Shown here in pieces: positions 7,294-16,571 of a DNA stretch of 64,000 nt. Below the pieces are notes generated by a model. The model searched no databases. It was not told the origin of the DNA and was given only the letters and a program-made list of their open reading frames with translations. Every line of letters starts with the position of its first letter. Positions within the stretch are counted from its first letter, which is position 1. The DNA is from Escherichia coli (GTDB lineage: Bacteria > Pseudomonadota > Gammaproteobacteria > Enterobacterales > Enterobacteriaceae). The stretch lies in assembly GCF_024502345.1 (NCBI RefSeq), contig NZ_JALDNN010000001.1. One strand, given 5' to 3'. The position numbers and the translations under genes are program-made.

Positions 7294-8982
7294 ATGAGTG
7301 GTGAAAAAAAGGCGAAAGGCTGGCGGTTCTATGGTCTTGTAGGTTTTGGCGCAATAGCACTGCTTTCCGCTGGCGTCTGGGCGTTGCAATATGCTGGCAG
7401 TGGGCCAGAAAAAACGTTGTCGCCGCTGGTGGTGCACAACAATCTGCAAATCGATCTCAATGAGCCGGACCTCTTTCTCGACAGCGACTCTCTGAGCCAG
7501 CTTCCCAAAGATCTCCTCACCATTCCGTTTCTCCACGATGTTCTGAGCGAAGATTTCGTTTTCTATTATCAGAATCATGTCGATCGTCTGGGCATTGAAG
7601 GCAGCATTCGTCGCATTGTCTATGAACACGATCTCACGCTGAAAGATAAGCTCTTTTCGTCACTCTTAGATCAGCCCGCGCAGGCGGCGCTATGGCACGA
7701 TAAACAAGGCCATCTTTCACACTACATGGTGCTGATCCAGCGCAGTGGTTTAAGCAAACTGCTGGAGCCATTGTTGTTTGCCGCTACCAGCGACAGCCAG
7801 TTAAGCAAAACGGAAATCAGTAGCATCAAGATAAATAGTGAAACTATTCCTGTTTATCAGTTGCGCTATAACGGCAATAACGCCCTGATGTTCGCGACAT
7901 ATCAGGACAAGATGCTGGTGTTTTCCAGCACGGACATGCTATTTAAAGATGACCAGCAGGATACCGAAGCCACGGCGATCGCAAGTGATTTGTTGAGCGG
8001 CAAAAAACGCTGGCAAGCCAGCTTTGGCCTGGAAGCGCGTGCTGCCGAAAAAACGCCAGTACGCCTGCGCATCGTGGCCAGCGCCAGGTTGCTGGGTTTT
8101 GGCTACCAGCGGTTAATGCCTTCTTTTGCTGGCGTACGCTTCGAAATGGGTAACGACGGCTGGCACAGTTTTGTGGCGTTAAATGATGAATCCGCCAGCG
8201 TAGATGCCAGTTTCGATTTTACGCCGGTCTGGAACAGTATGCCTGCCGGGGCCAGCTTCTGTGTGGCGGTGCCGTATTCACACGGTATTGCCGAAGAGAT
8301 GCTTTCGCACATCAGCCAGGAAAACGACAAGTTGAATGGGGCGTTGGACGGTGCCGCGGGGCTGTGCTGGTATGAAGACTCAAAATTGCAAACCCCGCTG
8401 TTTGTCGGTCAGTTTGATGGCACTGCCGAACAGGCGCAATTGCCAGGGAAACTGTTTACGCAAAATATTGGTGCGCACGAAAGCAAAGCGCCAGAAGGTG
8501 TTTTGCCGGTAAGCCAGACTCAGCAGGGCGAAGCGCAAATCTGGCGTCGCGAAGTGAGTTCCCGATACGGTCAGTATCCGAAAGCGCAGGCGGCGCAACC
8601 CGATCAATTAATGTCGGATTATTTTTTCCGCGTGTCGCTGGCGATGCAAAACAAAACGCTGCTTTTCTCCCTCGATGACACGCTGGTTAATAACGCCCTG
8701 CAAACACTGAATAAAACCCGCCCGGCAATGGTGGATGTAATACCCACTGATGGCATCGTTCCGCTCTATATCAATCCACAAGGCGTGGCGAAACTGCTGC
8801 GTAACGAAACGTTGACCAGTCTGCCGAAGAATCTCGAACCGGTTTTTTATAACGCCGCACAAACTTTATTAATGCCGAAGCTGGACGCTTTATCTCAACA
8901 ACCGCGTTATGTCATGAAGCTGGCCCAGATGGAACCCGGTGCCGCCTGGCAGTGGCTACCCATAACCTGGCAGCCGCTATGA
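7294..8982 (+). CDS. yfaA: YfaA, membrane-anchored protein of the alpha-2-macroglobulin operon (DUF2138 as I recall)
   Basis: 562 aa from [31 protein letters not shown], with an N-terminal TM anchor. The track ORF starts 16 codons earlier. Stop overlaps the yfaT start (ATGA). Confidence 0.9.
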
Positions 8983-9602
8983 GGCACTGGCTGCTGGCGC
9001 TGATTTGCTGGCTGTGTTGTGTTGTTGCCCATAGCGAAATGCTGAATGTCGAACAATCCGGGCTGTTTCGCGCCTGGTTTGTACGCATTGCACAAGAACA
9101 GCTCCGCCAGGGGCCAAGTCCACGTTGGTATCAGCAGGATTGTGCGGGCCTGGTGCGATTTGCGGCGAACGAGACGCTGAAAGTTCACGACAGTAAATGG
9201 CTAAAAAGTAACGGTTTATCTAGCCAGTATTTGCCGCCAGAGATGACGCTAACACCTGAACAGCGTCAACTGGCGCAAAACTGGAATCAGGGGAACGGGA
9301 AAACCGGCCCCTACGTGACCGCGATTAATTTGATTCAGTACAACAGCCAGTTTATTGGCCAGGACATAAACCAGGCGCTGCCTGGCGATATGATTTTTTT
9401 CGATCAGGGCGATGCCCAGCACTTAATGGTCTGGATGGGGCGTTACGTCATCTACCACACCGGAAGCGCCACGAAAACTGACAACGGAATGCGCGCAGTC
9501 AGTCTGCAACAACTTATGACATGGAAGGACACCCGATGGATACCCAACGATTCCAATCCCAATTTCATTGGCATTTATCGTTTAAATTTTCTGGCGCGAT
9601 AG
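8979..9602 (+). CDS. yfaT: YfaT, exported protein with NlpC/P60-like Cys/His motifs (DUF1175 as I recall)
   Basis: 207 aa, signal peptide [19 protein letters not shown]. Motifs [11 protein letters not shown] and [19 protein letters not shown] resemble the papain-fold NlpC/P60 catalytic Cys and His contexts. Confidence 0.88.
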
Positions 9603-15790: not shown

Positions 15791-15794
15791 TGCT

Positions 15795-16571
15795 ATGCGA
15801 AAGATTTTTCTTCCGTTGTTACTGGTGGCGCTTTCGCCTGTCGCTCACAGTGAAGGTGTGCAGGAAGTCGAGATTGACGCACCGCTCTCAGGCTGGCATC
15901 CGGCAGAGGGCGAAGATGCCAGTTTTTCACAATCGATCAATTACCCGGCGTCGTCCGTCAATATGGCAGATGATCAAAATATCTCAGCGCAGATCCACGG
16001 CAAAATAAAGAATTATGCTGCGGCGGGTAAAGTTCAGCAGGGCCGGCTGGTGGTCAACGGTGCCAGTATGCCGCAGAGAATTGAATCCGATGGTTCATTT
16101 GCACGCCCTTATATTTTCACTGAAGGCAGCAACAGCGTGCAGGTCATCAGCCCAGATGGGCAAAGCCGACAAAAAATGCAGTTTTACTCAACGCTGGGCG
16201 CTGGAGTGATTCGCGCACGTTTACGGCTGGTTCTCTCGTGGGATACGGACAATACCGACCTCGATCTTCACGTTGTCACGCCCGATGGCGAACACGCCTG
16301 GTACGGTAACACCGTGCTGAAAAACAGTGGTGCACTGGATATGGATGTCACGACGGGGTATGGACCCGAGATTTTCGCCATGCCAGCGCCAGTTCACGGG
16401 CGCTATCAGGTGTATATCAACTACTACGGCGGGCGCAGCGAAACGGAATTAACCACCGCCCAACTGACGCTGATCACCGATGAAGGATCGGTCAATGAGA
16501 AACAGGAAACATTTATTGTACCGATGCGTAATGCTGGCGAGCTGACGCTGGTGAAAAGTTTTGACTGGTGA
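15795..16571 (+). CDS. yfaP: YfaP, exported protein (DUF2135 as I recall)
   Basis: 258 aa, signal peptide MRKIFLPLLLVALSPVAHS. Starts 4 nt after the yfaQ stop and is the last gene of the yfa operon. Confidence 0.9.
   Translation: MRKIFLPLLLVALSPVAHSEGVQEVEIDAPLSGWHPAEGEDASFSQSINYPASSVNMADDQNISAQIHGKIKNYAAAGKVQQGRLVVNGASMPQRIESDGSFARPYIFTEGSNSVQVISPDGQSRQKMQFYSTLGAGVIRARLRLVLSWDTDNTDLDLHVVTPDGEHAWYGNTVLKNSGALDMDVTTGYGPEIFAMPAPVHGRYQVYINYYGGRSETELTTAQLTLITDEGSVNEKQETFIVPMRNAGELTLVKSFDW

Follow-up and report, generated by a model that had tools for sequence, protein, structure and literature searches.

The yfaA-T-S-Q-P operon of Escherichia coli, a five-gene counterpart of the Pseudomonas Mag operon with a thioester-less alpha-2-macroglobulin

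We analyzed a 64,000-bp stretch of Escherichia coli DNA (NCBI RefSeq assembly GCF_024502345.1, contig NZ_JALDNN010000001.1), further referred to as the window, whose positions 7294–16571 carry the genes yfaA, yfaT, yfaS, yfaQ and yfaP. With a rough probability of 0.8, this locus is the chromosomal yfaA-T-S-Q-P operon understood as the five-gene enterobacterial form of magABCDEF without magA, whose products, by homology, would act as a protease trap. This reading is carried by the orthology of the products with the Mag proteins, the gene order, the loss of the thioester site from the macroglobulin YfaS, and the folds and conserved residues of YfaQ and YfaT. The system as such is already known: the locus is an ordinary annotated core operon of E. 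coli, and its ortholog has been studied for over a decade. Two things seem to be new, namely, the derived character of the thioester loss and the three-module reading of YfaQ (an SxxK domain, a SpoIID-like domain and an HExxH motif), undescribed in the searchable literature. As a genome finding the locus has little weight, given that the operon is annotated and is normally intact. Of more specific interest could be the roles of MagC/YfaT and MagE/YfaQ within the bacterial macroglobulin system.

Orthology with the Mag operon and conservation of gene order

All five products match Pfam families strongly (E-values from 5.5e-18 to 6.6e-287), and thus the block of open reading frames (ORFs) is not a chance arrangement. 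By COG, signal peptide and size they map one-to-one to the Mag proteins: YfaA corresponds to MagB, YfaT to MagC, YfaS to MagD, YfaQ to MagE, and YfaP to MagA/MagF. Mag-type operons are recognized by co-operonic DUF2138 (with a transmembrane (TM) anchor), DUF1175, DUF2300 and DUF2135 in the B-C-D-E-F order, and the E. coli locus has all of these in that order. It lacks the sixth gene of such operons, the leading magA, which is a second DUF2135 paralog. Newer Pfam releases name PF06672 MagC, and PF09906, YfaP_C.

The sequence-only reading of the window had considered the mechanism essentially uncharacterized; this is not so, as the orthologous Mag complex of Pseudomonas has been studied (PMC3735191, PMC5764988, and the 2021 FEBS Lett paper on MagC). 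The six-gene operon magABCDEF (PA4492–PA4487) of P. aeruginosa encodes a so-called type II alpha-2-macroglobulin (A2M), MagD, without the CxEQ motif. MagD resides in the periplasm in association with the inner membrane, where MagB, the sole Mag protein with a TM helix, anchors and stabilizes it; MagA, MagB and MagF each bind MagD at the 1:1 ratio. MagD with an engineered bait region traps the tobacco etch virus protease stably, non-covalently and on its own, and deletion of magB or magE changes both the amount and the processing of MagD. The leader of the magA mRNA carries RsmA control (for all these results, PMC3735191 and PMC5764988).

The two systems share the protein families, their order, matching signal peptides and the single TM anchor, and in both the macroglobulin has no thioester cysteine. 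They differ in that E. coli has five genes instead of six, with no magA paralog upstream, where gyrA lies 148 nt away; in that the thioester site of E. coli is degraded further (GGVIN vs GGVEQ); and in that the experimental data come from P. aeruginosa. YfaT is ~78% identical to MagC, while the other four proteins show 44–54% identity to their Pseudomonas homologs. Recent transfer from Pseudomonas, prompted by the YfaT value, was considered and rejected: given the lower identity of the other four proteins and the fact that other Enterobacterales are equally distant, the high identity of YfaT reflects constraint and not transfer.

A scan of one genome per species yielded 526 loci with a YfaQ relative, and gene order was read in the best 80 of the 526. 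It is kept in all 75 loci that span the operon. Denoting the genes by their yfa letters, the order is P-A-T-S-Q(-P) in 68 loci of Pseudomonas, of which two lack the last P and one has an additional copy; it is A-T-S-Q-P in nine loci of Escherichia, Superficieibacter and Yersinia (Yersinia alsatica). Three contigs ending inside the A2M gene still show S-Q-P, and 11 divergent metagenomic relatives of YfaQ have the same order wherever the contig is long enough. Both in the best 80 loci and in the divergent ones, members of the YfaQ family were found solely within mag-type operons. The order conserved in all sampled relatives, along with the overlapping or abutting ends of the genes, bears out the tight coupling claimed for the window.

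A complete mag locus with six genes, as in Pseudomonas, is found on one contig titled Gordonia sp. IEGM753, an actinobacterium (locus L021, JBNQGB010000007.1); this assembly is likely to be contaminated or mislabeled.

Loss of the thioester site in YfaS

YfaS had been read as an A2M devoid of the CxEQ motif, and four lines of evidence agree with this: Pfam, the motif scan, the BLASTP comparison with YfhM, and an alignment of 80 sequences. The MG2 (92.8 bits), A2M_BRD (66 bits) and A2M (46.4 bits) domains score above the Pfam cut-offs, and bMG10 falls just under its cut-off (24.8 vs 26.2 bits). The sole match of YfaS in the PDB sequence search was complement C5, a weak one. YfaS has a signal peptide and no lipobox. 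CxEQ occurs neither in YfaS nor in the other four proteins of the operon, and the single cysteine of mature YfaS is C1189. The equivalent of the thioester site is G1069-V-I-N1072 (window positions 12740–12751): in a weak BLASTP alignment with K-12 YfhM it stands opposite YPYGCLEQTAS, and the alignment of 80 operon-type A2Ms confirms this register.

In the latter alignment most Pseudomonas A2Ms read YPYGGVEQTAS, six read YPYGCVEQTAS and two YPYCGVEQ, and the enterobacterial ones read GGVIN or GGVVN. CxEQ, in the form of CVEQ, CIEQ or CLEQ, was found in 8 of the 9 divergent metagenomic A2Ms that have the TED region on the contig, and its cysteine is often the sole one of the protein. The survey covered 80 close and 9 divergent loci, the divergent sample being small and without taxonomic labels. 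The loci bearing the motif are L015, L037, L062, L075, L076 and L083 from Pseudomonas (6 of the 80 close loci) and, among contigs from metagenomes or metagenome-assembled genomes, L084, L085, L086, L088, L090, L092, L093 and L094, with the motif YP.GC[VIL]EQ.

Since divergent operon-type A2Ms keep CxEQ, the operon architecture predates the thioester loss, which is a derived state within the family of mag-type operons, and the window has the most degraded form of the site; judging from the sequences compared, the loss looks stepwise, from GCVEQ via GGVEQ to GGVIN. The presence of CxEQ in many operon-type A2Ms also means that the published rule equating operon-type with thioester-less A2Ms is not general, and that the accessory proteins are no workaround for a missing thioester, which narrows the possible mechanisms of these proteins.

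The sequence-only reading had compared the operon to the type I pair YfhM (ECAM)–PbpC. As bacterial A2Ms, YfhM and YfaS both comprise MG and TED-like parts and a bait region, and their TED sites can be aligned; both genes adjoin one or more genes for peptidoglycan-directed proteins. The differences are considerable: YfhM is a 1653-aa lipoprotein with CLEQ and one partner gene, pbpC, whereas YfaS has neither thioester nor lipobox and is accompanied by four dedicated partners, the identity between the two being ~22% over local segments only. Out of the three features of type I (CxEQ, a lipoprotein signal and an adjacent pbpC), YfaS has none.

The start of yfaS was placed at ATG 9536, given the GGAAGGA Shine–Dalgarno sequence 6 nt upstream, the normal signal peptide and the agreement with the gene length in K-12. 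This ATG is also the start used in the K-12 record. It was preferred over GTG 9626, which is used in the NCBI/PGAP annotation of CP109924 and removes the signal peptide. Most Pseudomonas loci have a 4-nt overlap (ATGA) between the start of the A2M gene and the stop of magC; at the position of this ATG the E. coli gene has ATA (Ile22), and the start of yfaS appears to have shifted by 63 nt upstream, to a site inside yfaT.

YfaT and the question of covalent capture

The NlpC/P60-like character suggested for YfaT is supported by its matches to PF06672 (DUF1175; 196 bits) and to MagC of P. aeruginosa (PDB 7BK8; E = 2e-103), as well as by weak matches to the NlpC/P60 structures 3i86 and 3pbi. PF00877 (NLPC_P60) itself reaches 20.8 bits, under the cut-off of 23; the family proper of YfaT is PF06672. 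The fold assignment is correct and already published: the 2021 FEBS Lett paper describing 7BK8 has "NlpC/P60-like" in its title, and DUF1175 appears among the inactive, peptidoglycan-binding families in a survey of papain-like enzymes, which cites the MagC paper. C55 (DCAG), H148 (QHLM) and H160 (YHTG) are invariant in 76 out of 76 YfaT/MagC sequences and form a candidate triad; these residues are largely kept in the divergent loci as well. YfaT is also the most conserved protein of the operon, with the mean identity to Pseudomonas of 70% vs 44–54% for the others. For a protein that has been described as an accessory without catalytic activity, such conservation is unexpected. A role of YfaT as a peptidoglycan endopeptidase or amidase, or any other catalytic role, is putative.

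A speculation raised from the sequence was that YfaT supplies the covalent capture itself: as an active enzyme of the cysteine transglutaminase or peptidase type, it would attach the trapped protease to YfaS by cross-linking, in place of the thioester. We find this very improbable. The invariant Cys and His residues and the overall conservation of YfaT would suit such an enzyme, but MagC with the same residues stands beside CxEQ-bearing A2Ms in five divergent loci (those with both genes on the contig) and in the 6 Pseudomonas loci; hence MagC is not a substitute that arose with the thioester loss. The Pfam TGL model does match YfaT (E = 0.037), but at 13.7 bits it remains far under its cut-off of 23.7. 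According to one figure legend in PMC5764988, the 100-kDa form of MagD is absent in the magC deletion; on the other hand, MagD traps the protease stably with no covalent bond and no MagC, a stable MagC–MagD complex was not obtained, and DUF1175 is classed as inactive and peptidoglycan-binding in the survey cited above.

The Results text of PMC5764988 and the legend to its Figure 6 are inconsistent, which bears on any role of MagC/YfaT.

Three modules of YfaQ

The DUF2300 protein YfaQ belongs to a small family (394 representative clusters among 1.84 billion proteins). Its conservation was assessed on 63 full-length representatives together with the window protein (n = 64), the identity to YfaQ of the window being 27–48%. 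The columns conserved at the level of at least 97% are C82, C92, A104, S108, C109, F113, K195, T196, G211, G214 and W215 in the N-terminal part; Y326, R329, V330, R333, E334, A345, D369, Q374 and R375 in the middle; and C452, C488, H520 and E521 in the C-terminal part. S108 is kept in 64 of 64 sequences, and S60, K63 and H524 in 62 of 64. The eight conserved cysteines of YfaQ are consistent with a disulfide-bonded periplasmic protein.

The SpoIID-like signature had been noticed in the middle part of the protein, and it holds: PF08486 (SpoIID) scores 27 bits, or 30 for the isolated fragment, above the cut-off of 23 (model positions 2–65 of 97), and the three best PDB profile matches of YfaQ are all SpoIID chains, with E334 placed on the catalytic E101 of Clostridioides difficile SpoIID. 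Two alignments show E334 to be conserved, one in 80 of 80 sequences and the other in 63 of 64. YfaQ differs from the SpoIID/LytB lytic transglycosylases (PF08486; PDB 5i1t, 4rwr) in that the zinc site of C. difficile SpoIID is unmatched in the comparison and in its context, a Gram-negative periplasmic A2M operon instead of sporulation.

For the N-terminal part, Foldseek supports a class D beta-lactamase-like fold (E = 4e-5, TMt 0.54–0.59), which had been expected from the sequence motifs before the fold search returned. S60-x-x-K63 opens the helix 59–72 behind four strands, S108 follows 48 residues further, and K195-T196 lies on the strand 192–200. The correspondence of these motifs to the class D catalytic residues was drawn from spacing, topology and secondary structure, without a structural alignment. 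YfaQ would combine, as BlaR1 does, a class D beta-lactamase/BlaR1-sensor-like domain with an HExxH module. It differs from class D beta-lactamases, BlaR1 and MecR1 by its motifs S-C-G (vs SxV/SxN) and K-T-W/F/Y (vs KTG), and from BlaR1 in domain order and membrane topology; acylation of YfaQ is putative.

In the C-terminal part, the HEYLH motif (520–524) lies on the helix 512–526, preceded by three short strands (486–506), and E536 and E540, which are conserved as well, are on the next helix. In the predicted structure this looks like a minimal zinc-protease layout, which we put forward as a hypothesis; neither a zincin fold nor a peptidase family was found for YfaQ among the listed fold matches or in the sequence-family searches.

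Pfam places DUF2300 end to end on YfaQ twice, at residues 84–205 (window positions 14390–14755; 148 bits) and 412–532 (15374–15736; 160 bits). An internal duplication was considered and rejected: when the N-terminal half of the 64-sequence alignment was compared with the C-terminal half by hhalign, the probability was 0.2%, and the two stretches also differ in predicted secondary structure. The tandem annotation may come from a model with a mixed seed. The Mag papers regard MagE as a possible cytoplasmic chaperone, and we found nothing on the fold of DUF2300/MagE in the searchable literature.

These results suggest a testable parallel, based on fold and conservation, with the pairing of A2M and PBP1C and with sensors of the BlaR1 type. 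The residues that can be mutated for this purpose are S60/K63, E334 and H520/E521/H524 of YfaQ and C55/H148/H160 of YfaT.

YfaA and YfaP

YfaA starts with a K/R-rich N-terminus followed by a hydrophobic stretch at ~12–32. Its AlphaFold2 model (pLDDT 75, pTM 0.70) has an N-terminal helix at 11–35 and mixed alpha/beta sandwich domains, and the protein is predicted to be the inner-membrane anchor and scaffold of the complex, with a large periplasmic part. YfaP matches PF09906 (DUF2135) at 65 bits and has no cysteine. It is 50–57% identical to the downstream (magF-position) gene product of Pseudomonas and 37–43% to the upstream (magA-position) one, and by analogy is predicted to be a 1:1 accessory partner of the macroglobulin. 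The PDB sequence search gave no match for either YfaA or YfaP.

Proposed mechanism

Export signals were judged by eye and from hydropathy of the N-termini. By this reading, YfaA has a signal anchor and the other four products have cleavable signal peptides, with the predicted cleavage sites VVAHS/E in YfaT, GLANA/DD in YfaS, PTLA/EE in YfaQ and PVAHS/EG in YfaP. The published SignalP/TM table for the Pseudomonas Mag orthologs agrees with these signals (PMC3735191, PMC5764988). Thus, the claim that all five products are exported stands insofar as a signal peptide or an anchor is read in each; it is a prediction, and the observed location of MagE in P. aeruginosa is cytoplasmic.

By homology with Mag, the products of the operon would be exported, and YfaA (MagB-like), having one helix in the inner membrane, would hold and stabilize soluble periplasmic YfaS (MagD-like), with YfaP (MagA/MagF-like) bound to the latter 1:1. 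A protease entering the periplasm would cut the bait region, upon which YfaS would change its shape and cage the protease physically, with no covalent thioester link. YfaT (MagC-like, with the NlpC/P60 fold) would bind murein and, together with YfaQ, would tie the machine to peptidoglycan. YfaQ, which appears to unite a domain similar to penicillin-binding proteins (PBPs) and class D beta-lactamases, a SpoIID-like glycan-strand module and an HExxH motif, would be required, in a direct or an indirect way, for the macroglobulin to mature.

Several points weigh against this mechanism. Every activity of the E. coli proteins, as well as any catalysis by YfaQ or YfaT, is what we infer. K-12 is viable without intact yfaS, which means that under laboratory conditions the system can be dispensed with. 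In P. aeruginosa the cytoplasmic fraction was the only one in which MagE was found, and mass spectrometry did not detect MagC (PMC3735191, PMC5764988), which fits poorly with a periplasmic peptidoglycan-directed role of either protein; nor did MagC or MagE form a stable binary complex with MagD (PMC5764988). The SpoIID fold match of YfaQ spans about half of SpoIID (134 of 285 residues), and the NCBIfam model SpoIID_LytB (TIGR02669) stays far under its cut-off. No PBP or beta-lactamase family or chain was found for YfaQ by sequence in Pfam and PDB at E-values up to 10. The position of glycine in the KTG motif of PBPs is occupied by W, F or Y in the YfaQ family, which argues against a standard acyl-enzyme site, and the beta-lactamase-like domain may not be an acyl-enzyme. 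Finally, as E. coli has no magA paralog, its regulation probably differs from that in Pseudomonas.

We consider it unlikely that the operon is mainly a device for cell-wall sensing, repair or remodeling, in which YfaQ and YfaT would be working enzymes or sensors on peptidoglycan and YfaQ, in a BlaR1-like manner, would cleave YfaS (from 165 to 100 kDa) upon wall damage. SxxK, E334 and HExxH belong to the best-conserved columns of a family whose members are as little as 27–48% identical, but HExxH is a short motif and the glycine of KTG is replaced by an aromatic residue. The strands 486–506, the HExxH helix and the helix with E536/E540 fit the minimal zincin layout, but the listed fold matches include no zincin, and no peptidase family is recognized by sequence. 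Deletion of magE alters both the processing and the amount of MagD, an effect that its authors read as one of a signal peptide or a chaperone (PMC5764988), MagE being reported as cytoplasmic. Such a device would also be in line with the type I system, where A2M is paired with the peptidoglycan synthase PBP1C, and with the restriction of the YfaQ family to mag-type operons.

Also unlikely, in our opinion, is a joint reading, in which YfaQ/MagE would be an unrecognized BlaR1-like control module, periplasmic and disulfide-bonded, and the type II A2Ms of Pseudomonas and E. coli would be later derivatives that lost the thioester. The SxxK domain and the SpoIID-like domain with E334, which would bind or cleave glycan, would then read the state of peptidoglycan, and the HExxH site would process or activate the macroglobulin. 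If the mag-type operon originally had a thioester A2M, the published division into type I and type II would confound two independent characters.

Prevalence in E. coli and the K-12 allele of yfaS

The operon region was matched in 5398 of 5426 complete E. coli genomes at 95–99% identity, with the coverage of at least 80% in 5177 of them. The 9.5-kb block is 100.0% identical to that of E. coli O125ac:H10 strain C 236-04A except for one 1-nt indel and one single-nucleotide polymorphism, and all five gene names are already assigned by RefSeq.

The sequence-only reading had set the unbroken 1534-codon frame of yfaS against its pseudogene in K-12. This contrast is real: yfaS of K-12 MG1655 (b4500) has the same length as in the window (4605 nt) and is flagged as a pseudogene because of a single in-frame TGA at codon 1368, where the window reads TGG. 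Intactness is nevertheless not noteworthy. The 41-mer with the K-12 TGA was found in 364 of the 5426 genomes, and the matches listed (12, spread over the ranking) are all laboratory strains or their derivatives, several named K-12. With the TGA allele seen solely in K-12 laboratory lines among these matches, intact yfaS is normal and K-12 is the exception.

That the E. coli locus might be a decaying remnant without current function is scarcely credible. The nonsense codon of K-12, an insertion sequence (IS) element inside yfaS of one sampled E. coli genome (H5), the 1-nt frameshift of yfaA in the nearest public genome and a thioester site more degenerate than in Pseudomonas would agree with decay. 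However, the K-12 allele was seen in K-12 laboratory lines only among the matches listed, the region is present, mostly at high coverage, in the vast majority of the genomes given above, and in the window all five frames are intact, all putative catalytic and structural residues are kept and the operon coupling is preserved.

At positions 7812–7814 the window reads AAA, against AA in CP109924, the nearest public genome, where yfaA is annotated as frameshifted; in the window the gene is intact. This 1-nt difference may reflect either an error of sequencing in a short homopolymer or true variation between strains.

Gene organization and flanking regions

The coordinates are listed in Table 1. 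The ORF positions reproduce the five intact co-directional genes and the four junctions described earlier from the sequence, all five frames being free of internal stops: yfaA and yfaT overlap by ATGA, yfaT and yfaS by 67 nt, yfaS and yfaQ abut with a gap of 0 nt, and 4 nt separate yfaQ from yfaP. The operon is flanked by gyrA (4518–7145) upstream and rcsC (16846–19695) downstream.

Table 1. Genes of the yfa locus, the upstream intergenic region (window positions) and the modules of YfaQ (residues)
Feature	Location	Strand	Start, length	Assignment
yfaA	7294–8982	+	ATG, 562 aa	DUF2138, MagB ortholog
yfaT	8979–9602	+	ATG, 207 aa	DUF1175/MagC family, NlpC/P60-like papain fold
yfaS	9536–14140	+	ATG, 1534 aa	alpha-2-macroglobulin of the MagD (type II) kind
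yfaQ	14141–15790	+	GTG, 549 aa	MagE ortholog, three modules
yfaP	15795–16571	+	ATG, 258 aa	DUF2135/YfaP_C, MagA/MagF kind
gyrA–yfaA intergenic region	7146–7293	+	148 nt	gyrA terminator-like hairpin(s)
YfaQ module 1	residues ~24–250			class D beta-lactamase/BlaR-sensor/PBP-transpeptidase-like fold; S60-x-x-K63, S108-C-G, K195-T-W
YfaQ module 2	residues ~256–420			SpoIID-like; E334
YfaQ module 3	C-terminal region (512–548)			H520-E-Y-L-H524 and E536, E540

The gyrA–yfaA intergenic region contains a hairpin at 7165–7182 followed by a T-rich tail. The operon promoter presumably sits in this region; a consensus scan of 7146–7293 found no sigma-70-like site upstream of yfaA. In the interval 7000–17000 the consensus scan found 2 promoter-like sites vs 7.7 expected by chance, and within the operon it gave no promoter- or terminator-like signals above chance. 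The PADLOC defense models had no match.

Downstream of the operon, no terminator-like site was found on the plus strand between yfaP and rcsC (16572–16845). The distance from the yfaP stop to the co-directional rcsC is 274 nt in the window, and atoSCDAEB, which lies between these genes in K-12, is missing. This junction looks like a minority form, as most of the sampled E. coli matches stop at query position 9373, that is, at the yfaP stop.

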